UHGV virus genome: UHGV-0014568
Origin: a virus
Length of the DNA stretch: 37,204 nt
Direction: 5' to 3' (one strand)
How positions within the stretch are numbered: the first letter of the stretch is position 1; each line of letters starts with the position of its first letter. Both the position numbers and the translations under genes were made by a program. Below the pieces are notes generated by a model. It was not told the DNA's origin, did no database searches, and saw nothing but the letters and a program-made list of their open reading frames with translations. Below are positions 1 through 37,204 of the stretch, one piece after another.

Positions 1-2435
1 ATCTCGTATGCCATTGATGCCCCCTGAGCGTCACCAGCAAATGCATCCTTCACCATGTCAGAAAACTCAAGGCGAAGATCAGCATCTTTAGGCATCGGAA
101 TACCTTTCGCATCATCAGTACCTTTACGAGCCGCCGCGCCAGCAAGAATTGTCTGCGCAGCGGTTTCAGGAGACACGGAAACATCCGGATTAAACCAGTT
201 TTTTTCTGCCAAAATACCACCAGGCTTGTCCATCAGTATCCCGGCAACGGCAGCAGATGGAGCGTTGGCACTGATCTGCTGTAGTGCTGACATATACACC
301 TGCCCACCACCAGTGCTCTGCCTGATGGTATCGAGATATGCTGCCTGTTGGGAAACTGGAGCATCACGAAAGAAAACACCGATCTGATTGGCCTCGTCTT
401 TGGAAAAGAACGTCAGTGGAGTGCCATATGACTTAGCAAGGTCACTGACCTGAGCGGCACGCAAGGCAACGCTCTGTCCAAAGTTATCCTTATTGCTCAT
501 GTCGATAGGCTTTGCCTGTCCGGAGGCAAGAGAGAACTGCACAGGATCCGACTGCCGCTGCTTTATCACCTGATTTGCAGCCGAAACAACGTTGTCATAA
601 AGAGCTGCGCGAGACGCATAACCCTCTCCTGTCTCACCAGTATCCGGGCGTAATTGCTCAACATATGCGGTAATGCTGCTTGTCGGCATGTTGCGGAAAG
701 AGCCTATATACTGTCCGGCGATCTGCGTATTTCTGAACTCGGTATATCGCAGGTTTCCTTCTCTGACGCCATAAGCTGCAATAAAATCAGCCTCACCAGG
801 TGGGTTAGGAAATTCAACGCCACGCATATACGCAGCCGTCGCATCGCGAACCTGGCTGTCAATCATCGTTTTATATTCAGCCTGCTGCTGCCGACGAAGT
901 TGATCCGCCTGTCGCATAAAACTTGCCTGCGCCTCAGGAGATGCCGCATCGAATGCTGCATTACCGGTATAGCGTTTGGTGTTGGTTGGAATTGTTGATA
1001 AACCAAGTGCTGCACTGACACCAGCAGTTAACTGCTGATCACTGTATGGCTGACTACCGTTCTCATGATGGATAATGGCTGCACAAAGCGCCTTCAGGGT
1101 ATCAGGATTTGATGCATCGAGAGGCTCATCAGCAGAAACGCCAAGTTGTTCGCACACTGCTTTGATATACGACATAGTGTCATTTTTATCAGTAGGAGGT
1201 GCCCAGCGATTAATTATCTCACTGACGGTATCAATACCCTGCCGCTGATACGACATCAGGTTACGCCCTAATGCACGAATCCCGTGCTCAGGTGTTTCGA
1301 ATTTAGCAAATCGACCATCATCACCGGTCTGGCCTACCCACGGATTAGTTTTGCTGTATTCGAGATTTCCTGGGTTGTTATTACGGATACCGCGAGCACC
1401 ACCTTTTACGTAATACTGATCCTGCTGTTCGTGAAGTTTCTCAGCATAGGCGGTCGCATTCTCAGGGTTATCGAATATTCCAAGGTGTTTTCCAGTTTTT
1501 TCATACAGAGCAATAGCTTCGTCATCGGTAAGCAATTTTCCATCATCACTGACGGTGGGAATGAGAACTTCTCCAGCTTCCGTGCCTATAGAAATTGTTC
1601 GAACGGTACTGATAGTCCCATCTTCATTTTTGACAGATGGGCGGTTGAAGAGATTAATATTTCCTTGAACAACCATTCCCTTTGTGGACTTTGGCTCTCC
1701 ACCATAAGGATTAACAATAGCCCGCTTTGATCCAGCAGCAGTATCGCTTAACTCGCCATTACTTTGGATAAATGAGATCGCATTGTTTGCCGACCACTGG
1801 GACAATGCTGCATCAGCAACCTTCTCTTTAAACTCGATTTTCTTGGCCTGTATTTGCTCGTCGCTCCAGCCATGTGCAGCACCGTACTCCTCAATTTGCT
1901 GGAAAGTTTGCTTATTAGCCAATACGTATGCGGCATTGTCGCCATACAATGCTGCGGCATTTTTACCATTGTTCAGCAGCGTCGCCTGAAACTGACCTTC
2001 TTCGTAGGCATTAATTTGCCCTATCTCGTGCCGCCCGGCCTGCGTAGTGAACTGAATGCGCTGCTGCTGTGCCTGCTGCATGAAAGCATTACGAGCCTGT
2101 TCATCCGGCAGCGACATAGCCAGTTGCTCGACCTGGGCATCAAACTGCTGCGTATACTCCTGACCTTTTCCAATAGCATTTTTCCCTTTCAGGTTAAGCA
2201 AACCTGTTTCAGGGTTATTCAGCAGATCGCTGCTTATCTGGCTTAAGCTAAGAGAAGCATCCTGAGCCATAGCAACATTCGCACGCTGTTTTGCCTGCGC
2301 AATAATGCCTGCATATTGCTCTGCAACATCGCCAAGTACATCACCGACATTTGGTGTCTGAAACGATGAGAATCCCTGCGTCGAAATCCCTCTGCTCTGA
2401 ACCTGACGGCCCGATGTTGTTGGTACAACTGGCAT
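1..2435 (-). CDS. Large virion internal/ejection-type structural protein, 3' end runs off the window (at least 811 codons)
   Basis: ATG at 2435 with AAGGGG RBS upstream; reading frame stays open to position 1, so it is absent from the ORF track, which appears to list only ORFs closed inside the window. Sits after the gp13/gp14-like genes in a T7-like order. Function is positional inference. Confidence 0.45.
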
Positions 2436-2447
2436 CTTATTATCCCC

Positions 2448-2987
2448 TTATCGACCGGTTGGAGTGCCAACAGCAGCAGAAATCGGCGCAGCCTTCTGAG
2501 AGAACGGGCTCCACGTTCCGCCTCCCATCTGGTATGCACCGTATGCTTTTAGTGGTGCCGTTAACAAAGTGCTGGTCATCGATGATTTAGCAGCCGACTG
2601 AGCAGCTGCCCCCTGTGCCTGAGCATTCATTCCCTGAACCTGATACCCATATGCCTCACGCTGAGCATTATTCACTGTCGTTAACGCATCAAGAGTGCCG
2701 AACTGAGCATTATCCGCAAAAACGTCAAGAGCTGTTCCGCTACTTAATTCCGCACCGGTAGCCCCCATAGTAGCCGCCGCAGTGCCTGAGCGTTGACGCA
2801 TTTCACGACGACGCTGATCTGCTTCAATATTCCCACTATTGATTGAATCCTGTGCCTGAGCTTCAGCAATTTCAGCATTCCGATCAGCTATGGCTGACTG
2901 GTATTTTGCCTGCTTGCTCTGGCTGTACATTGACGCGGCTGTGGATGCCACTGTGACGGCAACCAAAGCGATGGCTGGGTTACACAT
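2448..2987 (-). CDS. Internal virion protein with N-terminal hydrophobic segment and Ala/Gln-rich coiled region (T7 gp14-like position)
   Basis: 179-aa ORF; hydrophobic N-terminus then low-complexity A/Q-rich sequence; tightly packed between neighbouring structural genes. Confidence 0.4.
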   Translation of the reverse strand: MCNPAIALVAVTVASTAASMYSQSKQAKYQSAIADRNAEIAEAQAQDSINSGNIEADQRRREMRQRSGTAAATMGATGAELSSGTALDVFADNAQFGTLDALTTVNNAQREAYGYQVQGMNAQAQGAAAQSAAKSSMTSTLLTAPLKAYGAYQMGGGTWSPFSQKAAPISAAVGTPTGR

Positions 2988-3451
2988 TATTTTCTCTCCA
3001 TGTGAAATCTGTGGAAATTAAGACCAAGAGCACCATAAGGCGCGGCTTCTTCAAGCCTGAATCCAAGCCAGTGCAGCCATGCTTTGGCAACATGGTTTCG
3101 CTCGTCGACGTAGTTTTCCAGGCGCGGATAAACTGCCAGCATCAGCTGCAATACAGGGCGGCAGTGGCGAAGAAATGTCTTCTGATATTTTTCAATACGG
3201 CTGGTTCCGACCAGCCAGGGTGTACCATTGCCACCGATCATTGACGCCGGAGATACACCAAACATGGTTACCAGTTCTCCGTTCGCGAACCCTGACCAGG
3301 CCATAGTCGCAGTGCGAAGACCAACACGCAGCGCATCTTCGGTAGTCATCAGCGATACCGCATACAGTTCGTCAATATCAGCCTGACGAACATCCGGCAA
3401 AATCATCTGAAGATGCTCTTCGGTAGCGGGAATAATTCGAACATCGATCAT
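2987..3451 (-). CDS. Virion structural protein (T7 gp13-like position)
   Basis: 154-aa ORF; its ends share a base with each neighbouring gene (start at 3451 = stop of upstream gene, stop at 2987 = start of downstream gene); position only. Confidence 0.35.
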   Translation of the reverse strand: MIDVRIIPATEEHLQMILPDVRQADIDELYAVSLMTTEDALRVGLRTATMAWSGFANGELVTMFGVSPASMIGGNGTPWLVGTSRIEKYQKTFLRHCRPVLQLMLAVYPRLENYVDERNHVAKAWLHWLGFRLEEAAPYGALGLNFHRFHMERK

Positions 3452-5922
3452 CAGAATCCCCCAACAGTAAGGCGAGGAATAACAGCAAGAACAGACAGCG
3501 GCAACGGGTCAAGCTGACGGATTCTTACACGTCCGTTTTTGCCCCAGTTACTGTCCAGTTTCACTTCTACTTTTCCGGTAGCGTCATCAATAGGATCATC
3601 GTAGAACTCGAATTCACGCTGTGGATATTCGTACCATTTACCGCCGGGCGTAGTCGCCCAGATGCCGCGGCTGGCATTCACAACCAGAGTAACGGAGGGG
3701 ATCACCTGTTTTTTGTCCAGCAGCGTTTCCTGTCCGTTAATGTTGATATCCAGTGTTTCGAATTCAGCAGTTATTGGCAGGCCGATGTGCACTACAGCCC
3801 CTGGTGATTCAAGCGTGACGGCACCTCCGGAAACTACTTTCTGTGGTTCCACGTTCGCATCAGAGAGGATGTTTACGGTCTGACCTTCAAGATGAGACAA
3901 GCCGCCAAATGCCCGGCGCGCCATCTGCCAGTTCGTGGTGGCCACATTCCTGAGGGATGGCGGGACGTTCCTGTTAGCACGAACCACTACAGCGGTGTTG
4001 CTGGTTACAGAAATAATGTCGCAACGTAATTCTTTTGACACTTCATCGCCAGTATCAGGATCAGTTCCGGTATAAGGGAACTGTAGTTGCGCACCGACAT
4101 CACTACTGGTGAAGTACGCACCACCAGAAATACTGATTGTATATTCCGCGCGGTAATCCCATTCGCCAGAACCACCAGTGATGGTCATCGTTCTGTCAGA
4201 CGTATTTCTTCCATCATAGCTAAGGCCAGAATCAACAAAGAAAGCATCTTCATCGCTGGTAAATAAACGGCTGGACAGCCGCTCGATGTATCTCACTGTT
4301 TGCCCGTTAACGGTTCGGTTAACGACGAAATACACTGCATCTTCATTGCCTTCGCTGATACTGCATGTGCTTTCATATTTTCCGGTACTGGATTGTGGTG
4401 CCCATGCAAAAACCTGCTGATCACGCAAATAGGTCATCACCAGTAATTTACCGTCATCACGAATGCAGAAGGCGCTGGAGTAAGGGACAATAGAGAAGCA
4501 CCAGTCAACAATGCTGTGCTTCTGAAAAAGATGATTGGCAAGGATGGTCAGGTCGTTCCCCTGATAGCCGTCAACATCGAATGAGTAGGCCAGATCACGG
4601 ACAACACTGCCTTTCTCCTGGACGAACAGAGCAATATTCGCCACGGCAATTGGTGGGACATTGCTCGAGCCATTTGATCCCTGAGAGCTGAATGCAAATG
4701 ATGATGGGGTAAGCACTTTGTTCTGGTCGCCGGTGATGACGTACTCACCTCCGGAAGTCAGCGCCACCAGCGAACCGACATCAATCAGGTGGCGGATCTC
4801 ATTAACCTGACGCCCGGCATAGGTGTAGATAATTCTGTCGTCATCCTGCGTAGGATTGCTTTTGCCAAAATCCTTATAATCCCCGGTACGGCTGGCCCAG
4901 ATAGTCTGAGGGAACGCAGTCGATGCGGCGAAGTAAAGACGTTGTTGATAATAAACAACAGTGCCAGGATAACCATTAACACTGTTCCAGGCATATTTAG
5001 CCCATTTATAGCTGGCATTATCCTCGCCAACTACCTGCGAAGGGATATAGGAAATCACCTCGGCAGTTGCAGTAGTTCCATTTGCAGCAGTGATACGGGC
5101 AATGCCAAAACCACTGTGCAGATATTCCCACTCAATGCCAGTATCATCATTACCGGATCCGCCCCAGCCATCCCATGATGTGCCTTCTGTATGCGAAGGG
5201 CGCAAAGTACCTGTTTTGCCTGCTGTAACGGCTCGATAGTAGTTACTGTCTGCACGGCGAATATCGCCAATAGACGTACTCTTACTGGTTTCCCATACCG
5301 GCACTGAATCCACTGCAGGCTGTTCCAGATAGAACAATTTGCCTACCTGCTCCGCGCCAAAAATAGAGGCGCTTGCCGTTAACGTAATTGTCCCGGTGCT
5401 GGCGCTGGCATAAACCGTCACTGACTCGTCAATATTGATATCTTCAAATGGCCCGTTCTTCGTTACCACATCAACCAGTTGCCAGTTGTCATGAGCATAT
5501 CGGCGCAACTCTTTCGGCGGGTATGCCGGGTGAACCAGCGTAAGCACGTCGGCGCTTTGCGTGAATTTAATTCGGAACAGATCGGCTTCAGTATATGGCG
5601 TGGCAATTTCATAAATAACATTGCTGCTGTTCAGCACCAACGCACCATCTTTGATAACGCGCATGTACTGGTGTCCGAACTCCAGAGCATAGGTCTGAAC
5701 CGTCGAGAACTGGAACGGGATCAGGCGGCATTTCCGATTTGGGTATTTGGCGGCACCGACAAAACGCGTACCAGGTCGATTCTCAACGCCGCCATACTGC
5801 CGCACGATAAAGTTATCGCACTTGCGCAATGCCACCTGGTACTTCGCCATGTCAATACGCCCGTACAACGACGGTCCAATCTCACCACCGGCAAAGCTGG
5901 GCTGGATCCAACTGATAGCCAT
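3451..5922 (-). CDS. Tail tubular protein B-like (nozzle) protein
   Basis: 823-aa ORF directly after a ~200-aa gene, as T7 gp11/gp12 are; N-terminus MAISWIQPSFAGGEIGPSLYGR resembles the start of podovirus nozzle proteins (recollection). Confidence 0.45.
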   Translation of the reverse strand: MAISWIQPSFAGGEIGPSLYGRIDMAKYQVALRKCDNFIVRQYGGVENRPGTRFVGAAKYPNRKCRLIPFQFSTVQTYALEFGHQYMRVIKDGALVLNSSNVIYEIATPYTEADLFRIKFTQSADVLTLVHPAYPPKELRRYAHDNWQLVDVVTKNGPFEDINIDESVTVYASASTGTITLTASASIFGAEQVGKLFYLEQPAVDSVPVWETSKSTSIGDIRRADSNYYRAVTAGKTGTLRPSHTEGTSWDGWGGSGNDDTGIEWEYLHSGFGIARITAANGTTATAEVISYIPSQVVGEDNASYKWAKYAWNSVNGYPGTVVYYQQRLYFAASTAFPQTIWASRTGDYKDFGKSNPTQDDDRIIYTYAGRQVNEIRHLIDVGSLVALTSGGEYVITGDQNKVLTPSSFAFSSQGSNGSSNVPPIAVANIALFVQEKGSVVRDLAYSFDVDGYQGNDLTILANHLFQKHSIVDWCFSIVPYSSAFCIRDDGKLLVMTYLRDQQVFAWAPQSSTGKYESTCSISEGNEDAVYFVVNRTVNGQTVRYIERLSSRLFTSDEDAFFVDSGLSYDGRNTSDRTMTITGGSGEWDYRAEYTISISGGAYFTSSDVGAQLQFPYTGTDPDTGDEVSKELRCDIISVTSNTAVVVRANRNVPPSLRNVATTNWQMARRAFGGLSHLEGQTVNILSDANVEPQKVVSGGAVTLESPGAVVHIGLPITAEFETLDININGQETLLDKKQVIPSVTLVVNASRGIWATTPGGKWYEYPQREFEFYDDPIDDATGKVEVKLDSNWGKNGRVRIRQLDPLPLSVLAVIPRLTVGGF

Positions 5923-6527
5923 CAGGACAACCTCGCAATGGTAAACTCATCAACCGGTGGCTGTGGTTCCTGTGATTCATTCTGGCTATGCGAGCCAGCA
6001 CTAAGAATCACGCGATTGTACATATTGAGGGCAAACGTACCGAGGTCTGCATTCCCAGTCAGCGCCATGTTAATAGCTGCCGCAAGACGCCAGGCCAACG
6101 CCTCCATAAAAATGGCATCAAACATGTTCACATCTGTAACGCGAGAGACATACTTGAGCCATGCCTGAGGCTGGTCTGTGTAGATCAACTTTCCTGTTCC
6201 GTTGGTGTCTGCACCAACTTCGTACTGAACGCGCATTGCTGCTGTTGGATTGCGTACACCAGGAAGCATAATTTCAGTAATGCGCAGACAATCGGACGGG
6301 TACTGATACGCATATTCCCAGTCAGGCGGTGGATTGCTCGTATCTGCAAGCGCCACGCGTTTGGTAGCAAAGTTCCAGTCAAAATCAGAAAGCACAGCAT
6401 CACGGCAGGCCTCAAAGTGCAGAGAACATTCCCCCGCTTCCTTGCTGGCTTCCGTCAGGCTGTTAATGCTGCGGCTATTGCCAATATTGGACAGCGCACG
6501 ATTGCAGATCTCTACTACAGAGGCCAT
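5922..6527 (-). CDS. Tail tubular protein A-like (adaptor/gatekeeper) protein
   Basis: 201-aa ORF directly upstream of the nozzle-like gene; size and position match T7 gp11-type proteins. Confidence 0.4.
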   Translation of the reverse strand: MASVVEICNRALSNIGNSRSINSLTEASKEAGECSLHFEACRDAVLSDFDWNFATKRVALADTSNPPPDWEYAYQYPSDCLRITEIMLPGVRNPTAAMRVQYEVGADTNGTGKLIYTDQPQAWLKYVSRVTDVNMFDAIFMEALAWRLAAAINMALTGNADLGTFALNMYNRVILSAGSHSQNESQEPQPPVDEFTIARLS

Positions 6528-6856
6528 TACTCACCCCCATTGCCGTACAGGGTTTCAGCCGCTGATTTTTCTACATCCCCGGAAACAGGAGCGATCGCCA
6601 TATCAGTGATCTGCAGATCGGCGCTGCGATTAACACCATCGTCAGTTTCTCTGGCAGACAGGCCTCGAATAACAGCCTTTGCAGTTATCATCACTTCTGT
6701 TCCGACGCCCTGAGGTTGCGCCTTCAGCTTATTCAATGTGTCGTTATTAAGAGTGATGCACAGCCCCCACGGGTATTCATCGCGAGTTCTGGTTTCTCCG
6801 CTCTCATCCTGGTAGCTGTCAGTGCCGGTTTTGAGGTTTACGAGTTCCATATACAC
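6527..6856 (-). CDS. Small virion-associated protein, unknown function
   Basis: 109-aa ORF inside the head/tail structural block. Confidence 0.35.
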   Translation of the reverse strand: MYMELVNLKTGTDSYQDESGETRTRDEYPWGLCITLNNDTLNKLKAQPQGVGTEVMITAKAVIRGLSARETDDGVNRSADLQITDMAIAPVSGDVEKSAAETLYGNGGE

Positions 6857-6900
6857 TCCTGCAATAAAGGGGCCGAAGCCCCTTGTCTGATTCGCGAGGC

Positions 6901-7245
6901 TTACACGCCCAGTTCTTTACGCTTATCTGCGATCTTCTCGCGGAGCGTTTCGGCTTTGGCGTTATGGTGTGGCTTCTCGTTAAAGAGCAATTCGTACTCT
7001 TCACGGAGCTTATCCAGTTCACCATCATCTGACACATCGTTGATGATTTTGGTGCTGGTTGCTGCCATAGACACCTTTCCTGCTACCTTTGCTTTTGCCT
7101 GTCTGGCTGCATCGTTAACAGGTTCCAGTGCGCTACCAGGCTCACCTTCGTATTCGATTTCTGCCCCCTCCGGCCACAGTGTGTTATGGATATGAGAGAG
7201 GCGCAGAACGCGGTATCTTGGTTTCTCACCTGACATCGATATCAC
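6901..7245 (-). CDS. Small virion-associated protein, unknown function
   Basis: 114-aa charged ORF in the structural block. Confidence 0.35.
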   Translation of the reverse strand: MISMSGEKPRYRVLRLSHIHNTLWPEGAEIEYEGEPGSALEPVNDAARQAKAKVAGKVSMAATSTKIINDVSDDGELDKLREEYELLFNEKPHHNAKAETLREKIADKRKELGV

Positions 7246-7246
7246 C

Positions 7247-7684
7247 TTAACCAGTTACTTTTGAGCGGATCGGATACGGCGTATTGGCATCAACATCAAG
7301 ACTGATACCAGCAGTGAATTCGCCAGCCGTTAGTGGGCCAGTTGCGACGGAGTAGTTAACACGCAGATATCGCTTAACACCGGCAGGCACCTTTGCAGAA
7401 ACAATTCGTTTACCTGCTGTCAGGGCGGTCTTTGCCAGTGCGCCACTATCATAAATAGTGGTCCATGAGCTGTTATTCTCACTCGTCTGCAACTGGATGT
7501 TTACAGTTGCATCACCGCTTGCCGCGGCGGCTGTGTTAACCAGCGCCCAAAACTCAAGCGGGTAACCCACGCCGATATCACGATGTTTTCCGTCAATTGG
7601 ACCGAGATCGATTACGTCAGTAGAAGCCGCGGTATTCGTAACCGCCTGAGCTTCGGAGAACATCAACAGTTTGTCGGTGATCAT
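7247..7684 (-). CDS. Putative minor capsid/decoration protein
   Basis: 145-aa ORF immediately downstream of the major capsid gene, with GGAGAAAG RBS; Ser/Thr/Ala-rich beta-type composition. Confidence 0.35.
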   Translation of the reverse strand: MITDKLLMFSEAQAVTNTAASTDVIDLGPIDGKHRDIGVGYPLEFWALVNTAAAASGDATVNIQLQTSENNSSWTTIYDSGALAKTALTAGKRIVSAKVPAGVKRYLRVNYSVATGPLTAGEFTAGISLDVDANTPYPIRSKVTG

Positions 7685-7699
7685 CTTCTTTCTCCATTA

Positions 7700-7719
7700 G
7701 TGGGTCTGTTACGACCCAC
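7700..7719 (-). other. Perfect 7-bp stem hairpin (GTGGGTC-N6-GACCCAC) just after the major capsid stop
   Basis: Inverted repeat between capsid stop (7736) and the next start (7684); no U-run follows, so attenuator or RNA-processing/stability element rather than a full terminator. Confidence 0.4.
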
Positions 7720-7735
7720 AGGTTAATAACAGGCG

Positions 7736-8728
7736 TTACACCACGCGGGCTTCTGTTTCCAGAAGCGCATCAGTTTCACGGATTGGTACACCACGGAATG
7801 AAGTCCACCACTCGCCTTCTGTCTCTTTTACGCTGATCGCCAGAGATGTTTTCTCCAGAGATTGCAGATCAAGAGCCTGGCCTACAGTGCGGTTCATGTA
7901 GAACACTGGGCGCCCCATGCCACGGTTTGGAATGCGATGCAGTGCTTTAACCATCAACTTCGCAATATTTGCGGCAGAGGAAGGTTCTGAAAGATTGCTG
8001 ACATCGATGTTTGCAATGCGAACGACATAACGCCAGTCACGCAGAGCAAGTCCGTTATCCCATTTGTAATGGGTACGGTAGCCTTCGTACTTGCCGCCAT
8101 TAGCATCTTCCAGTGTCACCTGGCCTTTATCTTCCATCTGAATGCCAGCCTTCTGCCCTTTCGGGAAGATGCCATGCACGGTGTTTTCGCCCCACACCAC
8201 TAACCAGATTGAGGTGTTATCTGTACCCGTGCCACCAGCATCAATGATGTTCTGAGCATTACCCGCAGACAGGCTGGAATAGCGGGAGGACAGCCCCATA
8301 AACTGCTGAGGGTTAACGCTGGAATCACCATAAAACAGCGTCTGCGCCATCTGCTGATTCATCGCTTCAATAAATGCTCGGTCTTCAGACAGGCGGAATT
8401 CGGCGGTATTGCCGTTCAGATCAGCCAGTGACTTATCGACTTCAGCATAGGTTTCCAGCATGCCAACGGAATCGGTGACCTGCACTGTGGTTGATTTGCT
8501 TGGCTGTACGCCATAGTTCAGCAAACGCCAGGTAGCTGAAGGTAAACCAGAACGAATGGTGGTTCGGTGTCCGGTAGGAAGGTTCCCTTCGACAAAAGGC
8601 ATATCCTGAAGGATCGGGTTAGTTTGACCGAGAAGCTCGATAATCTTATCGACTTTCCCGTTTGGATCGACGCGCTTACCCCAGTCAGCCAGCGTTAGCG
8701 CAGTTAAGCCTTTAACAGCCATTGTCAT
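7736..8728 (-). CDS. Major capsid protein
   Basis: 330-aa ORF directly after the scaffold-like gene and followed by a hairpin; size and position typical of an HK97-fold coat protein. Confidence 0.65.
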   Translation of the reverse strand: MTMAVKGLTALTLADWGKRVDPNGKVDKIIELLGQTNPILQDMPFVEGNLPTGHRTTIRSGLPSATWRLLNYGVQPSKSTTVQVTDSVGMLETYAEVDKSLADLNGNTAEFRLSEDRAFIEAMNQQMAQTLFYGDSSVNPQQFMGLSSRYSSLSAGNAQNIIDAGGTGTDNTSIWLVVWGENTVHGIFPKGQKAGIQMEDKGQVTLEDANGGKYEGYRTHYKWDNGLALRDWRYVVRIANIDVSNLSEPSSAANIAKLMVKALHRIPNRGMGRPVFYMNRTVGQALDLQSLEKTSLAISVKETEGEWWTSFRGVPIRETDALLETEARVV

Positions 8729-8736
8729 TTCCTCTC

Positions 8737-11407: not shown

Positions 11408-11421
11408 TTCAATGACTCCGG

Positions 11422-11628
11422 TTACTGACCAAGCAGCGTTTTACCGCTGGTATTAGCGGTTGATGTGTCGCCCTGAGAACCGGTAAGCAGCGTAGAACTA
11501 CGACCAGCAGCAGCGCGACGGCGACGTGTTTCTTCGTCGCGGGCATCAACAACGGCAGCATCCTGCTCCTGTGGTGCTGCCTGAACTTCTGGTGTTGCAG
11601 GCACTGATGGTGAGCTACCCATGCACAT
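11422..11628 (-). CDS. Possible small acidic protein upstream of portal
   Basis: 68-aa ORF with a GGAG-type RBS; the same RBS context (CGGAGTCATTGA) precedes the portal start; overlaps another ORF frame, so uncertain. Confidence 0.2.
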   Translation of the reverse strand: MCMGSSPSVPATPEVQAAPQEQDAAVVDARDEETRRRRAAAGRSSTLLTGSQGDTSTANTSGKTLLGQ

Positions 11629-28378: not shown

Positions 28379-28676
28379 ATTTAGACCTCGTTATTTTGAA
28401 AATCTGAACGACGTTACCGCGCGTTTTAATAACCGCAGCAAGCATGACAGCGTTGATAATGACCTCAGATAAATCCACAACCATTGGCGTGCGTAACCAG
28501 ATTGCATAAACAACACGAACAGGGATACTGGCCGCTGCAACAATCAGGAAATAAGCAAGCCACCCACCCCATCTCCTGTGTTGAGAACCGTTTCTCCGAA
28601 ATGTGGCAACTCGAACTGCTATACCGGCGCAAATAGCCGCATTGGTGATAAGCAAAAAAAGCTCATGAGTTACCAT
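28368..28676 (-). CDS. Holin (three predicted TM segments)
   Basis: 102-aa ORF immediately upstream of and overlapping the endolysin; three hydrophobic stretches; GGAG RBS. Confidence 0.5.
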
Positions 28677-29067
28677 CGTCTTTTCTCCCCGGAATTAACT
28701 CGCGTGGATTATCGGAACGGTGATAGAGCCAGATTCCAATTCGCACTGCGACGATTGCTGACACAAATGCACCGGCAGAGAAAACAATCCCTTTCTCGAA
28801 AGAATCCTGTGTGATTGTAGGGATCAGGCTGGCTATGCCGATAAGAATTGATGCTGCTGGTTTGTAGAATAGAAGTCCGCATAGAAAGCTAAGCATCGAC
28901 AAAAGCACGCGACGACGAATTGGATACTCTACCGCAGAGGTAACAAAAATTACCGCCCCAGACAAAGACCCCAAAGCAACCTCAGGAGGAACACCGGCCA
29001 CAACCGCAATAAAAGAACTAACACTAAGCCACTGATTTAAAGACTCACTTGTTAGTTGAACTGACAT
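28663..29067 (-). CDS. Multi-pass membrane protein of the lysis cassette (second holin or antiholin candidate)
   Basis: 133 aa from ATG 29067 with GGTGG RBS (track's longer ORF starts at 29157); several hydrophobic segments; overlaps the holin start. Confidence 0.4.
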   Translation of the reverse strand: MSVQLTSESLNQWLSVSSFIAVVAGVPPEVALGSLSGAVIFVTSAVEYPIRRRVLLSMLSFLCGLLFYKPAASILIGIASLIPTITQDSFEKGIVFSAGAFVSAIVAVRIGIWLYHRSDNPRELIPGRKDDGNS

Positions 29068-29168
29068 AAAAACCACCGTTTCATGTGCATGAAGAACCCA
29101 CTTATTTGTGAGTTCATCATACACAATAAACCATATGTGGTTAAACCATAAAGACAACTATCTTGTCT

Positions 29169-31907
29169 TTATTGGATAATATGGAACGAATTTTTAACAT
29201 GAATAGTAGCAGAATTATTACTATTATTAATTAAAGCGATCTTCCCGCCAGAATATCCGGGAACAGCCTGTTGAACAGTTCCGCCAGTAGTGGGTTTAAC
29301 TGTTATTGTAGGTACTGACCCTGCCAGGCCAGCTGTAAGCTTGACCTCACCTGTCACATCGCAAGTCAATGTGCCGACAACAGTAAGAGCGCCGAAAAGC
29401 ATTGTTGAAATCTCAATTCCAGTTGAAGTTCTCTTTGCAACAACTCCGCTTTGTGAAGTAGGTTTATAGTAAAAAATCACTCCACAGCCAACAGGAATTG
29501 ATGATAAAGCAACGTTTTGAACATTTGGTGATTTAGTTGCACCATACATATCAGGAGATTCATCATTAGCAGTTTCTGCCGCATACGACAATAACAAATC
29601 AGCTCTATCCCTTACCTGCCCATATACTCCTTTTATTGCATTTTCAGCAAGATACACTGAAGCGCTTTGCGAGCATGACTCTTTCAAATCTCCTCTAAAC
29701 AACAGCCCTGGTGGATATACTTTTGATGGCGTACCATCGTAAATAATCTCAATCTGATTAAGTCCTTTTTTAAGGGTTCCAAGGTGAGTGGTTAGTTTGT
29801 TTGTAAACGATGAGACGCCATTACTAGCGATATTACCAGAACTAAATGCTGTATTACGGATATCTTGTTGTCGGATAGAGATGGAGTTAGCGCGACCGTT
29901 TGCAACATATGTTGGGTTATACGGCTCAAAAACAACCAATGATATATCAGAAGTTTCACACCAGACAAAATATCGTATGGTTAAATTTTCAGTAGCTGGG
30001 TAAACCACGCCCCAGCCAGTTAGACCATTTAGATACGTGTCTCCACTCAACCGCTCCATACCAACGCTGTACGTGCTACCAGACGGGAAGCCAAATGGCT
30101 GGATATCATTATCAACTGTTGGTACGAAGTTATTCCCTTTTTTCGCAGTGTGGACTCTATACGGCATAACAGCCTTTGCTGCATATGCGCCGATATATTG
30201 ATGGCCCAGAGGAGCAAAATGCGTGCTATCAAAAGTGCCATCTGTCGGGCGCCGAGCAATATCTTCAAGCGTATAGCTTCCGAGGTCTCTGTACATCTCG
30301 GTTACTGGCTGAGAGAGATCGAGGAACTCTACCGCAGGGAACAGGCGTTCAATATGCTTCTTAATTGATGCTTCGAGAGCCGCCCATTGTGAGCCATTCT
30401 GGTTCATTGAAACAACGCAGACGGCACATCCGTAACCCCATGCTTTACGGATAAACTGCTCAAAACGGAATAAATACTGATCGAACCCTAACGTATCAAG
30501 TTGTCCGTTATCGTTAACGCCCATGGATATGAAGCAAACGTCTGGCGGCACGTTTCCGTATGCAGTGTTTTTGAAGAAGCCATGGTCAAAGTTACGATTC
30601 GCCCACCCGTCAATGAGTCGCTTTCCAGAAGATGCGCAGTTTTCAGCCTTAAATATGTAAGCACTATTTTTAGTAAATCGGTTAAGCCAGTCGGTAAATG
30701 TGCGAAACCAAGAACCTGAACCACCATTACTATTGTGATCGTAGTTAGTTGAAGATAGGTCACCATTAGAATCGGTTGGATTAGCTGACCATCCAGCACC
30801 GTATGCGCCGTCAGTGATTGAATCACCAACGATACCAACACGACATAGCGTATTGCGGCGAGCGAACTGGTTTATTACGTTGAATGCAGTGTATTTACTG
30901 CCATGAGTTGCCAATCCAACATCAAATATGTGCTCATTCCCCCATGGATCTCTGGTGAGAATTTTTCCTTCACCGATAAATTTTGTCACATCATCATCTG
31001 GCAGGAAATTGCAGCGTAGCTGAACATCCTTCGGAACATAAATTTGTCCAGTATAAGCGTATACTGCAGCGCGGTTATCTGTCTCGCTATCAATGACTAC
31101 CCCAGGAACATATTTCACGGCTAATGCATCATTGCGATATTTACCGTTGCTTAGCTCTGTCCTTAATACAGCATCACCTACACCTATCCATGCCCCTGGA
31201 CCAACACCACCAGTAGTGGTAGGAGTTGATCCAGGCGGAACTACTTTGGGCAGTGGCCCATCCCATCTGTAGTATTCGCCGTTGCTTTCCCAGAGAAGAA
31301 CATCGTTAAGATAGATGATGGTATTACCCAACTCAAAAGATTTCTTCGTGTTATAGCCATACAATCCATTTTCTAAGGTTTCAATAATGGTGCTAAGTAT
31401 GGTACTAAATTTTGCATAAAGATCATCAGTATATTTTTTTGTAGCAGCATCTTGGGGAAGAGATGGATCACGAAGATTTCTAATATAATTTGAAAGCGCG
31501 TCATAAAAAATTGCTACGTCATTTGGCTTTCTTAAAGCCAACTTATCATTTCTTAATGATTGTTGAATGAGCATAGTAAGTTTATCAAACGCATCCTCAT
31601 GTACCTCAGCGAAGAACTTACCCTGATTACGTAAATCCGTTTCCTGAGTAGCTGGTAGTTCTCGTGATATAGATATCTGATGACCGTTAGCCAACGCCTT
31701 CGAGAGAATTACATTACCGCCGTTGTACCCTCCCGCTCCGGTGACGATGTAATCTGTATCAAGAACCAGTACGTTTATATTCTCGCTAATGTCAACAACC
31801 TGTACTACCAGATCTGATTTTTTGAAGATCCTAAATTTGTAAGGGAATGTCGTCGTAACACCATTGCCAGTGTATTCGTTGTGGTTAACTTCGGTTGAGA
31901 CCGTCAT
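29169..31907 (-). CDS. Tailspike/tail fibre with T7-type N-terminal attachment domain and SGNH (GDSL) esterase domain
   Basis: About 912 aa from ATG 31907 with GGAGA RBS (track ORF starts at 31949); N-terminus VNHNEYTGNGVTTTFPYKF resembles podovirus fibre N-terminal domains; SGNH blocks GDSITDG (Ser codon at 30819-30821), GVNDNG and DSTHF. Confidence 0.7.
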   Translation of the reverse strand: MTVSTEVNHNEYTGNGVTTTFPYKFRIFKKSDLVVQVVDISENINVLVLDTDYIVTGAGGYNGGNVILSKALANGHQISISRELPATQETDLRNQGKFFAEVHEDAFDKLTMLIQQSLRNDKLALRKPNDVAIFYDALSNYIRNLRDPSLPQDAATKKYTDDLYAKFSTILSTIIETLENGLYGYNTKKSFELGNTIIYLNDVLLWESNGEYYRWDGPLPKVVPPGSTPTTTGGVGPGAWIGVGDAVLRTELSNGKYRNDALAVKYVPGVVIDSETDNRAAVYAYTGQIYVPKDVQLRCNFLPDDDVTKFIGEGKILTRDPWGNEHIFDVGLATHGSKYTAFNVINQFARRNTLCRVGIVGDSITDGAYGAGWSANPTDSNGDLSSTNYDHNSNGGSGSWFRTFTDWLNRFTKNSAYIFKAENCASSGKRLIDGWANRNFDHGFFKNTAYGNVPPDVCFISMGVNDNGQLDTLGFDQYLFRFEQFIRKAWGYGCAVCVVSMNQNGSQWAALEASIKKHIERLFPAVEFLDLSQPVTEMYRDLGSYTLEDIARRPTDGTFDSTHFAPLGHQYIGAYAAKAVMPYRVHTAKKGNNFVPTVDNDIQPFGFPSGSTYSVGMERLSGDTYLNGLTGWGVVYPATENLTIRYFVWCETSDISLVVFEPYNPTYVANGRANSISIRQQDIRNTAFSSGNIASNGVSSFTNKLTTHLGTLKKGLNQIEIIYDGTPSKVYPPGLLFRGDLKESCSQSASVYLAENAIKGVYGQVRDRADLLLSYAAETANDESPDMYGATKSPNVQNVALSSIPVGCGVIFYYKPTSQSGVVAKRTSTGIEISTMLFGALTVVGTLTCDVTGEVKLTAGLAGSVPTITVKPTTGGTVQQAVPGYSGGKIALINNSNNSATIHVKNSFHIIQ

Positions 31908-31961
31908 GTTAAATCTCCAGATAGTCGCAGCACCCGTTGCGCCGCACATCCGGTCATTCTA

Positions 31962-32026
31962 TTACCTGAAAAACCACATATGGATAGATAACCCATAAAT
32001 ACGAACAGATATCACCTTTCAGGTAA
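31962..32026. promoter_or_regulatory. Long-range inverted repeat TTACCTGAAA ... TTTCAGGTAA with AACCACATATG motif between tailspike and the LexA-box gene
   Basis: Half-sites at 31962-31971 and 32017-32026 are exact reverse complements, 45 bp apart; AACCACATATG at 31972-31982. Confidence 0.4.
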
Positions 32027-32063
32027 TTCGCAAAACGTGCTGGATAGCAAACAAATTATTTGA

Positions 32064-32083
32064 TACTGTATAAATATACAGTT
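32064..32083 (+). promoter_or_regulatory. LexA (SOS) box overlapping a promoter
   Basis: TACTGTATAAATATACAGTT is a near-match to the LexA consensus TACTGTATATATATACAGTA; TTGATA -35-like hexamer at 32060-32065; 20 nt upstream of the ATG at 32103. Confidence 0.7.
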
Positions 32084-32102
32084 ATTGCATGGAGAAGATA
32101 AG

Positions 32103-32360
32103 ATGCAGCAGTATCACTATCCACTGGAAGACGGATTTACCGAAAGGATTCACACGCCGGGAGGCGTCAGGTCACTGGTGGAGGGATCGCACTTGATGAA
32201 ATTACTCCGGGATCTCGATAAGGATGGATTTAATGTCGATGGCCCACTTGCCGAACTGACTGCACTGATTAACTACGTCACCAGCTCACAGATGTCTATG
32301 CAGGATCTGCAAACACATCTCGACTATTGTGCCGAACAATTGCGAAAACAAACCACATAA
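32103..32360 (+). CDS. Small SOS-regulated protein, candidate antirepressor
   Basis: 85 aa from ATG 32103 with GGAGAAG RBS (track's TTG start at 32085 is less likely); opposite orientation to the flanking virion genes; no family recognised. Confidence 0.5.
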   Translation: MQQYHYPLEDGFTERIHTPGGVRSLVEGSHLMKLLRDLDKDGFNVDGPLAELTALINYVTSSQMSMQDLQTHLDYCAEQLRKQTT

Positions 32361-32382
32361 AGAAAAGGCCGCGAAAGCGGCC
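32351..32382 (-). terminator. Terminator-like hairpin GGCCGC-GAAA-GCGGCC with minus-strand U-rich tail
   Basis: Perfect 6-bp GC stem at 32367-32382; TTTTCTTTATG follows on the minus strand (end of internal-virion-protein transcript); no T-run on the plus side. Confidence 0.45.
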
Positions 32383-32383
32383 T

Positions 32384-32395
32384 GTGACATGTCAC
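32384..32395. repeat. 12-bp perfect palindrome GTGACATGTCAC (copy 3 of 3)
   Basis: Exact palindrome abutting the GC hairpin between two convergent genes. Confidence 0.8.
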
Positions 32396-32402
32396 GCTCA
32401 CG

Positions 32403-32543
32403 TTATGACAAACCTATGTACCCTGCCACACCAGATAATATCAAAACAACTGCAACAGCAAATTCACCATCACCAATGATACATTTACGGTTCATAACGC
32501 CAAGTGCAACAAGCGCAAACACAACAAGAATAAAAGCAATCAT
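32403..32543 (-). CDS. Possible 46-aa two-helix membrane peptide
   Basis: ATG at 32543 ten nt after the 824-aa gene stop, AGGA-type RBS; MIAFILVVFALVALGV...FAVAVVLILSGVAGYIGLS; below the track cutoff. Confidence 0.3.
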   Translation of the reverse strand: MIAFILVVFALVALGVMNRKCIIGDGEFAVAVVLILSGVAGYIGLS

Positions 32544-32552
32544 TTCTCATCC

Positions 32553-35027
32553 TTATTGCGGAGTGACATCCTGCGGTCGCCACCAGTATGTCTGATTAAA
32601 CTCTTTCTTCGAACGTTGCTCCATTTTACGCAAATAGCCTGGTGAAAAATACTCCTGCATCTGGTTAAAGATCATATGATCGAGAGCCGCCTTCAAGTAC
32701 CAGAGATTAGCACCTGGCATCAGCCCCTTCCCAAGCTTAACCAGATCACCACCAGTCTGCTCATTCTTCCCTTCCACAGCATTTAACGGTATGCCCTGAG
32801 CAATCTTCACTACGTCATCAACCAGACCAGCTACCGGGCCAAGCATCGACGCCAGCGCGCCGCTTCCGTACCTAGTGTGATCTGACAATAAAAAGTCACC
32901 GTAAAGGCCAAGACCACCACCTTTCAGTAGAGCACCAAGCCAAAATTTAGCAGCATCTTCCCCCGTCATCTCGCGAGGATTACGACCAGACGCAAGGTCG
33001 TTAAGTTGCTGCGACAAAGCGCCAAGAATGGTCGTACTGGCAATAAACGTCGCAATATATGCCGCACGCCCACCAGCAGACGGCATCCCCATAGCGCGTG
33101 ACCAGTGACGCATAACCACCGAGATAGGGAACGATTTAAACAGGAAAACACTTCTCGTTAATTCACCTTTCCATGTTCCACGCTGAATACCAGAACCTGT
33201 TATCAGTTGCTCACGTGCGCCAGGAGTGATGACCGCCATATCCACTTCTTCGGTCACCGCCCCGAGCAGTTTACGCATTGCCTCAAATTTCACGCGTTCA
33301 GGCTCACCAAGATGTTTAACTGCTGAATCAGGGATACGCATAATGCTTTCCGGTGTCAGCATCGTATTATTACCGTTACCCCAGTCCTCCTGTTGCGCCA
33401 GCTTCCATACGCTCCAGTCTGTGTCAGTAATCCCTTTGCTTTTCAGGATACGAAAATCAGAGTAATCGAGGCTACGAAGGTCTGGTGTCCGTGACACTAC
33501 TTCTCCCAGGCTTCCCATCATAGTTACGCCATAGGCGCGCTTGTGCGCATCTGACCATGCTGTAAGCCCACTGGCACGCATTACCGCCGTTGCCGCCCAA
33601 CGAGACACTGACGGCCCCATATTATCCATCGCCCAGCGGTTAACGCTGCCAAGTAGAGATTCCATCGCCAGACCAGCGCGGCGCGCCCGCGCAAGTTCTG
33701 TACGGTTCGTTGGGTCCATAGCTTCAAGCTGGTTGCGGAATAACTGGTTCATTGGAAGGTTGGTAACCTTCGCAGACAGATACATGGTTCCAAGATCAGA
33801 GAACGATGACAGCAACGCGGATCCGAGTCTGCTGGCAACCAGCCAGTTGCGGATATTGTCAGACCATCGCGCGATATGCGGATTCGCTACAGGCTGTGTC
33901 TTTCCGGAAATAAAGTTGTACAGATTCTCTGTGTTGTTCGCCAGCCGCTCGACTTTACCGGTTTTACTCGGGTTAGCTGTTGCCGTTTCTGCCTTCACCT
34001 GATCAAGAAGAGAGCGGAAAACATGATCGGGGTTTGGGCCATATGTTTCCACCAGTGCAATATCTTTACTGATACCTTCCAGGTGACCGACCATGATTTC
34101 CCATAGAGAGCGATCGCCATAAAGTTGCTGATATTGCAGATAGGAATCTGCATCTTTGAAATGTATCTGTCGTGATGCATTACCACGGTTAGCACGTGCG
34201 CCGGAAATTCGCATTCCGGTATCAGTAAGCTTATTCAGCCCACCAGTAGCGATCGTGTTATAAGCCTCTCCAAGAAATGCAGACAACTCGGCATCGTTCA
34301 TCAGTTGTCCATCGGCTCGGGTATAATATTTGCGATCCAGCTTACCTATAACATCGCTAACCCACTTATCCTTTGATACCGCCCCAACCTTTTCCATAGA
34401 ATGATGTTGAGGGATCCCCCAGTTTTCGAGATAGCCAATGTCCCCACCAGCATCATTAAACCGGCGGCGCAGCAGCTCTGTAACTTCTCTCCACGCCTTA
34501 GCACCTTTTCTTGCTTTAGCATTGCCAGTATTTTGCCCTCGCATTTCATATACCAGGTCACGCACGCCAGCTTCATCTTCAAACAGGCCAAAAAAGCGAG
34601 GATCAACTGCTTCAAATGCCTCTTGCAATTGACTCAATGCATAATCACGAGTGGCTTTTGTTCTGGACTCAACAGAGAGGAAATTCGATTTACCGTCTGC
34701 ATTAAAAGCAATAGTACGGTTAAGAGCGCCAAGCTTCCCATCAGCCCCTTGATAGCTATTGATAAATTTATCCAATCTCTGACGTGCGGCTATAGTGAGG
34801 GCCACACGACGTTTCTTTAATGCCGCTTCTCGCTGTAATTCTTCAGATGCCAATTGTGCTGCACGATATAGCCGCTCTGATTCGGGAAGTTGTCTCCACG
34901 ACATCGGGTCATCACGAGCAATGGAGCGCATATTTCGATAAATGCGGTCTTCAATGTTCTGTATTTCTCGCGCCGTTAACGTGCGCTGCGCCGCCTGCTG
35001 GACCGCTTGTATACATTCCTGTCTCAT
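32553..35027 (-). CDS. Large internal virion (core/ejection) protein
   Basis: 824-aa ORF upstream of the tailspike; large mixed helical protein; role inferred from position. Confidence 0.45.
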   Translation of the reverse strand: MRQECIQAVQQAAQRTLTAREIQNIEDRIYRNMRSIARDDPMSWRQLPESERLYRAAQLASEELQREAALKKRRVALTIAARQRLDKFINSYQGADGKLGALNRTIAFNADGKSNFLSVESRTKATRDYALSQLQEAFEAVDPRFFGLFEDEAGVRDLVYEMRGQNTGNAKARKGAKAWREVTELLRRRFNDAGGDIGYLENWGIPQHHSMEKVGAVSKDKWVSDVIGKLDRKYYTRADGQLMNDAELSAFLGEAYNTIATGGLNKLTDTGMRISGARANRGNASRQIHFKDADSYLQYQQLYGDRSLWEIMVGHLEGISKDIALVETYGPNPDHVFRSLLDQVKAETATANPSKTGKVERLANNTENLYNFISGKTQPVANPHIARWSDNIRNWLVASRLGSALLSSFSDLGTMYLSAKVTNLPMNQLFRNQLEAMDPTNRTELARARRAGLAMESLLGSVNRWAMDNMGPSVSRWAATAVMRASGLTAWSDAHKRAYGVTMMGSLGEVVSRTPDLRSLDYSDFRILKSKGITDTDWSVWKLAQQEDWGNGNNTMLTPESIMRIPDSAVKHLGEPERVKFEAMRKLLGAVTEEVDMAVITPGAREQLITGSGIQRGTWKGELTRSVFLFKSFPISVVMRHWSRAMGMPSAGGRAAYIATFIASTTILGALSQQLNDLASGRNPREMTGEDAAKFWLGALLKGGGLGLYGDFLLSDHTRYGSGALASMLGPVAGLVDDVVKIAQGIPLNAVEGKNEQTGGDLVKLGKGLMPGANLWYLKAALDHMIFNQMQEYFSPGYLRKMEQRSKKEFNQTYWWRPQDVTPQ

Positions 35028-35032
35028 TTAAT

Positions 35033-36835
35033 TTAACCTCTCAAGAAACACGCCACAGCGACATCAAACAGGCTGGAATCCTGTATTGCCTGCTCACTTT
35101 CCCTGTTCGCTTCATCCAGTACTTCACGCGCGCTGCGCGATTGTGGATTACCATCATCATCCAGCACGGTTATTATCATGTCCGGTGATTCAAGCAGCGA
35201 GTCTTCAGCTATGCGCAGATCAATATCTCCTGCCGGATCTGCCATCATCTTTTGTTCTGCCTGTTGCAATATCTTACCTGGCTCAAAAGGAGCTACTTCG
35301 TCTGGCGTCCTGACCTCTGCTGTTTTATAGAATGAAACAGCCTGAGCATTAAGTTCACTCTCAGCCTGCTGTCGCCGTGCCAGTTCTGCTCGAGCTTCAA
35401 AAAACTGACCGCCAGGCTCGTGCGGTGCCAACGCGTTACGGGAAAATTCCAGGCGTTCTTGTGCCTGCCGGATTCGTTGATCAATATCGCGAAGTCTGGC
35501 CTGTTTATCTGATCGAGCACGAGACAAAGCTTTACCGCTACCGGTTGGATCTTCTGCAAGAATTTGTGCACGCTGTTCAGTGAGATTTTCAATAATTCGT
35601 TGGCTATTAGCGATTTCAGACTGGTAAACCTGTCTATCTCCACGCGGCAAAAGCTGCGCGGCCTGTTCTTCAAGCAACCGATTTTCTATAGCGCGCGCCG
35701 TTACTCCATCATCTACAGATGACAGAGCCTCATTAACTGCCTGAGACAGCAGACTCTTGCGCCCAGGAATTTCACTGAAAGATGCAGACTCAACAATGCT
35801 GGCAACGTCTACAGGTCTCCCTTGGCTAACATCAGACATAGCTTTTCGCAGAGCCTGAATGTGAGAATTGCGCGAAAGCACGTTGATCGGCACGCCGGGC
35901 GCAATATCAATTTCAGCATGATGAGCGGCATTCGCCGCCAGTGCAGCATCGATATCAACTGGTGAAAAATTTGGTGCGTTTGTAGACTCGCCGCGAGAGT
36001 TAATAAATCTGCCGACACCACCAAACGCCACCCCAAGAACAGCATCAATAGCAATTGCCTGTCGATCCAACACATCATACTGGTTAGCCATTTCGCTATA
36101 GCCACCATCACGAAGCGTTTTTGCAGTAAGCCCACGCTGTGCCATACCGAACGCAATATTTGTACCTGCGGCATAGGCAATATCTGGCGTTGCACGTACT
36201 GCTGTTGCTGCGGCGCGTCGCACTGAACTCTCACCCGTCCGCGCAAGCTGAGCCGCCACACCTTCCGCCAGCGCACCACCAGCACGTAACCCGAGGCTCA
36301 TAGGGATCAGTGTTCCGGCACCAGCAGCAATGCCCTGCACTAATCCCGCTTCCTGCGCCGTCCTGAAATCAACACCCTGTGCTGTCAGCCGTTCAAACTC
36401 AGAAAAACCCTGTAGCGAAGTTACCGCCGCTGCACCTCCGACAGGACCACCGAGCGTTGTACCGACAACAGCCTGCCCGCCCATATCGAACAACCCATAA
36501 AGAACCTGCCCGGCGGTTCCGGTTGTCGCGGCATCAGGCGTCAGCCGCTTAACCTGCTGCTCTGCTAGTTTTCTCTGCTCAGCAATGTATGAAACTGAAG
36601 TGTCATTGAGCGAGGTGTTTTCGTTAACAAACTGAGCAATCGGGGATACGATTTTATCCATCCCTGCCCATAGCAACTGATCTGGCTTTGCCACCAGCCC
36701 GGAGTACAAACCAGACAATGCCGCTCCTACAGCGTTGTCGAAAAAACCAACATCGCTGTTAAAGCCAGCTGGATTTGATGCTGCTTCGTCAAGCTGCTGA
36801 TTCTGGTTTACTGGATTAAGGCCAAAGTAACTCAT
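35033..36835 (-). CDS. Gly/Ala-rich internal virion (ejection) protein
   Basis: 600-aa ORF with a Gly/Ala-rich hydrophobic N-half and a charged coiled-coil C-half. Confidence 0.45.
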   Translation of the reverse strand: MSYFGLNPVNQNQQLDEAASNPAGFNSDVGFFDNAVGAALSGLYSGLVAKPDQLLWAGMDKIVSPIAQFVNENTSLNDTSVSYIAEQRKLAEQQVKRLTPDAATTGTAGQVLYGLFDMGGQAVVGTTLGGPVGGAAAVTSLQGFSEFERLTAQGVDFRTAQEAGLVQGIAAGAGTLIPMSLGLRAGGALAEGVAAQLARTGESSVRRAAATAVRATPDIAYAAGTNIAFGMAQRGLTAKTLRDGGYSEMANQYDVLDRQAIAIDAVLGVAFGGVGRFINSRGESTNAPNFSPVDIDAALAANAAHHAEIDIAPGVPINVLSRNSHIQALRKAMSDVSQGRPVDVASIVESASFSEIPGRKSLLSQAVNEALSSVDDGVTARAIENRLLEEQAAQLLPRGDRQVYQSEIANSQRIIENLTEQRAQILAEDPTGSGKALSRARSDKQARLRDIDQRIRQAQERLEFSRNALAPHEPGGQFFEARAELARRQQAESELNAQAVSFYKTAEVRTPDEVAPFEPGKILQQAEQKMMADPAGDIDLRIAEDSLLESPDMIITVLDDDGNPQSRSAREVLDEANRESEQAIQDSSLFDVAVACFLRG

Positions 36836-37179
36836 TGCGGAATATCTCCGGAGAATCTCTGACGCTTCTGTGTCAGATTAAGAACAACGGGAGAACCATC
36901 ATCTTTCAGCAGATAACCAGTACCAAGTTTCACCAGGTACTGACTATCGCCGTAACTTTGCAAACCATACTGACCAGGCGGTGTTTTTATCCCGGAGCCG
37001 ACAACTTGTTCATTCCAAGCCTGATTAACCTGCTTATCGAATTGCTCTGCAGACATTCCCCACGGCAAAAGGACATTCCCCATTCCGTTATAGTCATGCA
37101 CGCCACCTGTAGCTACGTTAACAGCCTGTTTCCAGACATCATTGTCAATTTCGCCTGATACCACGCCTTTTTTCGCCAT
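36832..37179 (-). CDS. Small virion-associated protein
   Basis: About 115 aa from ATG 37179 (GTG at 37182 also possible) with AAGGA RBS; stop overlaps the next gene start. Confidence 0.35.
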   Translation of the reverse strand: MAKKGVVSGEIDNDVWKQAVNVATGGVHDYNGMGNVLLPWGMSAEQFDKQVNQAWNEQVVGSGIKTPPGQYGLQSYGDSQYLVKLGTGYLLKDDGSPVVLNLTQKRQRFSGDIPQ

Positions 37180-37204
37180 CACACCAGCGTAATAATCCTT
37201 TGCG

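Follow-up and report, generated by a model that had tools for sequence, protein, structure and literature searches.

The two ends of virus genome record UHGV-0014568 meet within one codon of a virion protein gene in a phiV10-like phage

The virus genome record UHGV-0014568 is a linear string of 37,204 nucleotides (nt), referred to here at its full length as the window, and its two ends interrupt the minus-strand late genes. This raises the question of whether the ends are neighbors on a circular genome or are separated by lost sequence. A preliminary description of the window had proposed that the ends are contiguous on a circular map, that the start point is arbitrary, with perhaps a few kilobases missing, and that the genes form a T7-like late block. 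On the basis of sequence comparison, we are highly confident that the window holds, complete and without redundancy, the 37,204-bp genome of a temperate podovirus in the genus Uetakevirus (epsilon15/phiV10 group), presented as a linear string that was opened arbitrarily on a circular assembly, with nothing missing. The parts of this explanation observed directly here are the exact join of the ends, the collinearity with phiV10 around the whole circle, and an intact phage attachment site (attP).

A minus-strand frame runs open for 815 codons to position 1, where 2 bases are left unread, and the minus-strand frame that enters at position 37204 has a 1-base offset, stays open for 123 codons, and fits the left-end frame. 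When position 37204 is joined to position 1, a 939-codon open frame results, which holds a Met-initiated protein of 935 amino acids (aa). The break falls within a single codon (GAG AT/C, where the slash marks the record ends; residues ...A S M A Y E / I A K D Y Y...). The gene restored in this way, the junction gene, is made up as follows:

2435 to 1, then 37204 to 36832, minus strand: junction gene as a joined open reading frame (ORF), a 935-aa large virion/ejection protein and homolog of phiV10 p18
1 to 2435, minus strand: 5' part of the junction gene (811 codons plus 2 bases; start codon at 2435-2433), an open frame to position 1
36832 to 37204, minus strand: 3' part of the junction gene (1 base, 123 codons, and the stop), in frame from position 1
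1400 to 1730, minus strand: 331-nt segment within the junction gene (~98 aa; aa ~243 to 340), seen as the blastn gap between the phiV10 matches at 1-1399 and 1731-14964

Because a frame match by itself has a 1-in-3 chance, the join was tested by homology. At the protein level, a tblastn comparison of phiV10 p18 with the window aligned aa 1 to 242 with positions 2435 to 1710 and aa 249 to 713 with positions 1397 to 3. On the circularized window, p18 aa 249 to 837 align across 37204/37205 at 98.6% identity, over 589 aa that equal the query span, with no net gap. Residues 1 to 930 of the joined protein match PHROG 992 from end to end (positions 1 to 764 of 764) in one stretch, with 1,153 bits. 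The 331-nt segment replaces 37 nt of phiV10, giving a protein of 935 aa versus 837 aa; no Pfam family matches the segment, and a 40-mer taken from it is present in four IMG/VR contigs. It lies just upstream of a central region of the junction protein that matches PHROGs labeled endolysin or tail injection transglycosylase.

At the nucleotide level, window regions 1-12000 and 27000-37204 were used as megablast queries against 50,697 phage records, and positions 1 and 37204 fell on adjacent bases in five of these records. The bases matching window positions 1/37204 are the following:

phiV10: 14683/14684
vB_EcoP_PAS61: 27864/27865
phiv142-3: 12239/12238
O157 typing phage 9: 19294/19293
HEMP4: 27651/27652

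An artificial 600-nt join (the last 300 nt followed by the first 300 nt) matched phiV10 with 588 identities out of 600 and 0 gaps, and 42 IMG/VR contigs contain an exact copy of a 41-mer that spans the join. With 1,000 nt taken from each side, the resulting 2,000-nt sequence gave a single match over the join in 46 fetched loci; in 25 of them, all 2,000 nt were covered at 98 to 99% identity, nearly always gap free. The homology support for the join is thus far beyond chance. The proposed contiguity of the ends is borne out, and so is the arbitrary start point, the record having been opened in the middle of a codon of the junction gene. The suggestion that a few kilobases might be lacking does not hold, as zero bases are lacking at the join. 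Nor does any gene lie between the ends: the additional internal-protein gene that the preliminary description had proposed looking for is not there, since the two ends are the two halves of a single gene. The right end had been read as beginning with more internal virion proteins; it begins instead with the last 124 codons of the left-end gene, and two large virion proteins do follow.

The complete phiV10 genome (NC_007804.2 / DQ126339.2, 39,104 bp) served as the blastn reference. Six collinear high-scoring segment pairs (HSPs) cover the whole phiV10 circle:

Window 1-1399: phiV10 14683-13285
Window 1731-14964: phiV10 13247-1
Window 14965-15302: phiV10 39104-38767
Window 18131-29145: phiV10 35713-24733
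Window 31424-32360: phiV10 21479-20543
Window 32358-37204: phiV10 19530-14684

The window is uninterrupted at the ends of the phiV10 record (window 14964/14965, just upstream of terS), and phiV10 is uninterrupted at the ends of the window. The window has matches for 43 of the 55 phiV10 proteins. Their order around the circle is conserved, nearly all are full length, and most have 90 to 100% identity; the 12 unmatched proteins fall in three cassettes.

No direct repeat common to both window ends was found, and the untrimmed end overlap of a circular contig, which was also looked for, is not present. With no repeat linking them, the ends therefore show no assembly overlap left untrimmed and no terminal repeat of the T7 style. 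This bears on the idea that the window ends are the true physical termini of a linear virion genome, with cos ends or short T7-like direct terminal repeats. Such termini would suit an analogy with T7, given a portal and a gp14-like core protein of T7-type families, but we regard their probability as negligible, as the ends lie in a codon of a conserved gene, which runs without a break in every relative, and as a phage with an 81% identical large terminase subunit (TerL) is circularly permuted. That phage is Enterobacter phage Tyrion, for which a terminally redundant contig and PCR-confirmed circular permutation have been described (PMC5754475). The window TerL also has a weak, distant similarity (~24% identity over part of its length) to the PacB-type terminases of P1 and D6; it had no Pfam hit and no match among solved structures.

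The circular map is most likely a product of headful packaging followed by arbitrary opening of the assembly. Headful packaging from concatemers would yield virion DNA with terminal redundancy and circular permutation, and reads from such permuted virions would assemble as a circle without a natural end. The assembler or depositor would then trim the overlap, and the start of the record would be left where it fell. The record starts of relatives do vary: that of phiV10 is upstream of terS, and that of pHL15EC-2 (described below) is inside the portal gene. In the records of phiv142-3 and HEMP4, the matches start at window position 27144 and reach the record end, and both records appear to have been opened at or next to attP. 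The epsilon15 genome paper reportedly gives a "nonredundant" genome length, a wording that would agree with terminally redundant ends. The arbitrary cut point is a matter of how the record was opened and not new biology.

Several points weigh against the reading of the window as a complete circular genome. The circular closure of the physical molecule is deduced from homology, and the headful assignment of TerL draws on one close relative together with the weak PacB similarity. Moreover, the window (37,204 versus 39,104 bp) is 1.9 kb shorter than phiV10, which could have suggested missing sequence. The same deficit, together with the position of both ends in large virion-protein coding sequence, would suit the view that the ends are near each other on the circle but not adjacent, with a few kilobases and perhaps another internal-protein gene lost between them. 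That view is scarcely credible given the adjacent bases in five relatives, the gap-free join, the exact 41-mer in 42 contigs, and the end-to-end profile match of the joined protein. The deficit is explained by cassette replacements, all of them away from the join. The contributors to the length difference are the absence of the Bro-N cassette (p22/p23, ~1 kb) and of oac, a shorter and different distal part of the tailspike, different early genes at 15303-18130, and the 331-nt insert. Where the Bro-N cassette is absent (region 32360-32405), at least 80% of window 31300-33000 is found in 18 E. coli genomes, in several as a single aligned piece; the arrangement without Bro-N thus exists unbroken in other E. 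coli prophages. The early region 15303-18130 is a mosaic of cassettes that are common in E. coli prophages. An assembly gap was considered as the source of the deficit and rejected, every difference being a clean cassette replacement.

The integration module shows what form of the phage the window represents. Its elements are as follows:

27143 to 27159, minus strand: attP core ATTGAGTGGGAATGATG, which differs from the published core by one mismatch, in its last base, and is located 191 nt upstream of the integrase gene
25702 to 26952, minus strand: tyrosine integrase of the P4 type, 99.3% identical to phiV10 p31 (PF13356, PF22022, and PF00589)

The core ATTGAGTGGGAATGATT, located ~190 nt upstream of int, has been published for phiV10, epsilon15, and ZX5 as guaA targeting (PMC9782041). 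In the window, the core has a single match, with 0 expected by chance, and at the corresponding place in phiV10 the core is exact. Phage DNA flanks the site on both sides within one continuous HSP (18131-29145), and the site is therefore an unrecombined attP rather than attL or attR. It is consequently very improbable that the window was cut from a bacterial chromosome, either as an integrated prophage or as a single unit of a tandem prophage. The phage is certainly equipped for integration (integrase, attP, and repressor), and related prophages occur in ~580 of 5,426 complete E. coli genomes; however, an integrated copy would open at attP, with the integrase at one end and a guaA-side host flank (PMC9782041), whereas here attP is internal and the window ends in the middle of a gene. 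Recovery of exactly one unit with zero overlap from a tandem array would be a coincidence. Bacterial genes adjoining the ends, which would have spoken against the circular map, are excluded, the ends being adjacent bases of one codon and attP being intact inside the window.

A different source for the same join would be a circular extrachromosomal contig of a bacterial assembly (i.e., an excised or replicating circle or a pseudolysogenic episome) rather than virion DNA. We consider this unlikely. E. coli strains HL15 and SF10 each come with a 41,027-bp record of such a phage, the one from HL15 being circular and starting inside the portal gene, and the unrecombined attP of the window would suit a circle of this kind. 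The sequence itself, however, is no different from that of a virion-derived circular assembly. In addition, a 40-mer from the tailspike gene was not matched exactly in IMG/VR, in the GTDB species genomes, or in the JGI metagenomes, and the tailspike region is covered to at most 62% in any complete E. coli genome and to at most ~65% in any complete E. coli genome or phage record. Recovery of the sequence from a bacterial culture as a free circular episome, like the HL15 record, rather than from virions is quite doubtful. If it was so recovered, this would, together with the lack of Bro-N and oac and the swapped tailspike, suggest a phiV10-like phage maintained extrachromosomally, with a changed receptor enzyme and lysogenic-conversion strategy; the exact end join would be unchanged.

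The HL15 record (pHL15EC-2, NZ_CP079771.1) is labeled a circular plasmid, and its portal gene, which spans the origin, is frameshifted; the phiV10-like record of SF10 (NZ_CP079768.1) is likewise separate. Both are probably phage circles misfiled as plasmids.

With the ends joined, the minus strand reads in the order terS, terL, portal, protease, capsid, two tail genes, two small internal protein genes, the junction gene, the p19 and p20 homologs, tailspike, lysis genes, attP, and integrase. As the preliminary description had argued, the order from terS through the tube, internal proteins, and tailspike to lysis is sensible only with the ends joined. The members of this late block, in minus-strand order and with identities to phiV10 proteins, are the following:

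14250 to 14924, minus strand: terminase small subunit, 100% to p01 (PF03592)
12778 to 14253, minus strand: terminase large subunit, 99.2% to p02
9728 to 11407, minus strand: portal protein of the T7 gp8-type family, 98.9% to p07 (PF12236, E = 2.8e-187)
7736 to 8728, minus strand: major capsid protein of the epsilon15 gp7 type, 99.7% to p10 (PF20911, E = 2.1e-149)
3451 to 6527, minus strand: two tail (tube/nozzle) proteins of 201 aa and 823 aa, 100% to p14 and 98.8% to p15 (PHROG 394 and PHROG 376, "tail")
2448 to 3451, minus strand: two small internal virion proteins, 98% to p16 and 63% to p17
2448 to 2987, minus strand: the second of these small internal proteins, of the T7 gp14 family (PF24072, 32.3 bits versus a cutoff of 27)
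35033 to 36835, minus strand: 600-aa virion protein, p19 homolog, 97.5% over the full length (PHROG 1145, end to end)
32553 to 35027, minus strand: 824-aa virion structural protein, p20 homolog, 99.2% over the full length (PHROG 684)
29169 to 31949, minus strand: 926-aa tailspike with a phiV10-like N-terminal adaptor and a G7C gp63.1-type module
27270 to 29157, minus strand: lysis cassette (membrane protein, holin, GH19 endolysin, and Rz/Rz1 spanins), 80 to 96% to p27-p30a

The start of the p19 homolog overlaps the stop of the junction gene (ATGA). The capsid family PF20911 (Major capsid protein GP7) is that of the epsilon15 gp7 type.

The tailspike matches phiV10 p25 over aa 1 to 233 only, at 62% identity. 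Three Pfam families (PF18668, PF21562, and PF21988) score above their cutoffs in it, and the SGNH/GDSL esterase family PF13472 scores below (26.8 bits versus 32.9). Across the tailspike region, the G+C content goes down to 0.43 to 0.45, and ~65% of the region is 82 to 85% identical to tailspikes of four phages (Shashou, Snoke, Sciku, and Schulenburg) and a small number of E. coli prophages. The window lacks the O-acetyltransferase gene of phiV10 (oac), whose usual place is after the tailspike gene.

Between terL and portal, a tRNA-Arg gene (anticodon TCT; 12056-12132, plus strand) lies antisense to the late genes, as predicted by ARAGORN and with an Rfam RF00005 score of 73.3 bits over 12056-12129. 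It overlaps the ORF at 12062-12313 (minus strand), a homolog of the phiV10 "hypothetical protein" p04, which may be spurious. The tRNA gene is unannotated in the phiV10 record, and PGAP annotates one at the same place in pHL15EC-2.

Beyond the integrase gene, the RecE/RecT-like genes, a methylase gene, and the repressor gene lie on the plus strand, followed on the minus strand by the replication genes and the accessory early genes. The following were located:

21209 to 21793, plus strand: prophage repressor with helix-turn-helix (HTH) motifs in a divergent early control region, 99.5% to p40
19594 to 20457, minus strand: replication initiator (HTH plus DnaT domain by Pfam), 92.7% to p43
15418 to 15999: DUF551 protein in the accessory early region
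16439 to 16894: HNH endonuclease in the accessory early region

The replication initiator is 12 aa longer than phiV10 p43, and its gene contains iterons of 24 nt in 4.6 perfect copies (ATCCCGTTTTTGGGATCATTCAAC) at 20006-20115. Degenerate 12-nt and 18-nt repeats flank the iterons, the whole array spanning 19973-20160. The iterons are probably a lambda-style origin inside an O-like gene. The RecE-like nuclease (22398-23219, plus strand) and the RecT-like annealing protein (23189-24157, plus strand) have a separate ORF each, and the two ORFs overlap in different frames. In the phiV10 record there is a single 586-aa RecE-RecT fusion (p37), which may be a frameshift or sequencing artifact of that record, because pHL15EC-2 also has two genes.

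These results have practical consequences for the record. The window can be used as a complete phage genome, and no sequence needs to be recovered. The two truncated end ORFs are one 935-aa gene; the remedy is either an annotation of this gene that spans the origin or a reopening of the record upstream of terS at 14964/14965, as in phiV10. The classification is to be corrected from T7-like to temperate epsilon15/phiV10-like, and this changes what is expected of the phage: lysogeny, presumably at the guaA site shown for relatives, and packaging that would be headful and hence transduction capable. Phage genomes that close into a circle and have an arbitrary linear start are commonplace, and the genus is well described. 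The phage, a temperate one of E. coli, is a new mosaic member of Uetakevirus, which does not bear on the finding about the ends; its exact mosaic (a G7C gp63.1-like tailspike without oac and without the Bro-N gene) was not met in the collections searched.

The likeness to T7 proposed in the preliminary description extends to some general features. As in T7-like podoviruses (Autographiviridae), the virion is short tailed, and large internal/ejection proteins follow the tail tube genes. Of the window's proteins, only two fall in T7-type families, the portal (PF12236) and a core protein (PF24072, T7_gp14), and the idea of a T7-like late block gives way to collinearity, at 95 to 98% identity, with the temperate phage phiV10. 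Unlike T7, the window has an integrase, attP, a repressor, and lambdoid replication genes. In T7, the terminase genes end the late block, after the tail fiber gene, whereas in the window terS and terL (14924 to 12778) stand before portal (11407), at the head of the block. All ORFs of at least 800 aa encode the tail protein, the tailspike, and two virion proteins, leaving none of RNA polymerase size, although no specific RNA polymerase profile was run. T7-style direct terminal repeats are not found at the window ends, which lie inside a codon.

The group prototype epsilon15 (AY150271.2) has the same virion module and genome plan as the window, with 76% megablast identity over 57% of window 1-12000; it differs in its host, its tailspike, and its much lower DNA identity. 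Tyrion (KX231829.1) has the same architecture, with a structural module 82% identical in DNA, but it is 41.8 kb long, has another host, and carries an acyltransferase gene.

The closest relatives of the window are phiV10, PAS61, phiv142-3, vB_EcoP_ZX5, and HEMP4. The guideline of the International Committee on Taxonomy of Viruses for a genus is ~70% nucleotide similarity. The phiV10 HSPs cover ~31.8 of 37.2 kb at 84 to 98% identity, or ~82% as length times identity. The window also has the Uetakevirus gene order (terS to lysis, integrase, and then the early regions) and the P4-type integrase (99.3%) with the attP core 191 nt upstream (1 mismatch); the genus assignment follows the phiV10 record. 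Over those ~31.8 kb, phiV10 is collinear with the window at 95 to 98% DNA identity and shares its integrase, terS, terL, portal, capsid, tail, and three large virion proteins. Unlike phiV10, the window lacks Bro-N (p22/p23) and oac, has a G7C gp63.1-like module as the receptor-binding part of its tailspike, and differs in its early genes at 15303-18130, in the 331-nt insert of its p18 homolog, and in its separate RecE-like and RecT-like genes; its record was opened in the p18 homolog rather than upstream of terS. The circular phiV10-like record pHL15EC-2 resembles the window in its tRNA-Arg at the same position and its separate RecT and nuclease genes. It differs from the window in carrying Bro-N, YafO toxin, and acyltransferase genes and in having been opened at another gene, and with its start in the middle of the portal gene, it is a direct precedent for the arbitrary mid-gene start seen here.

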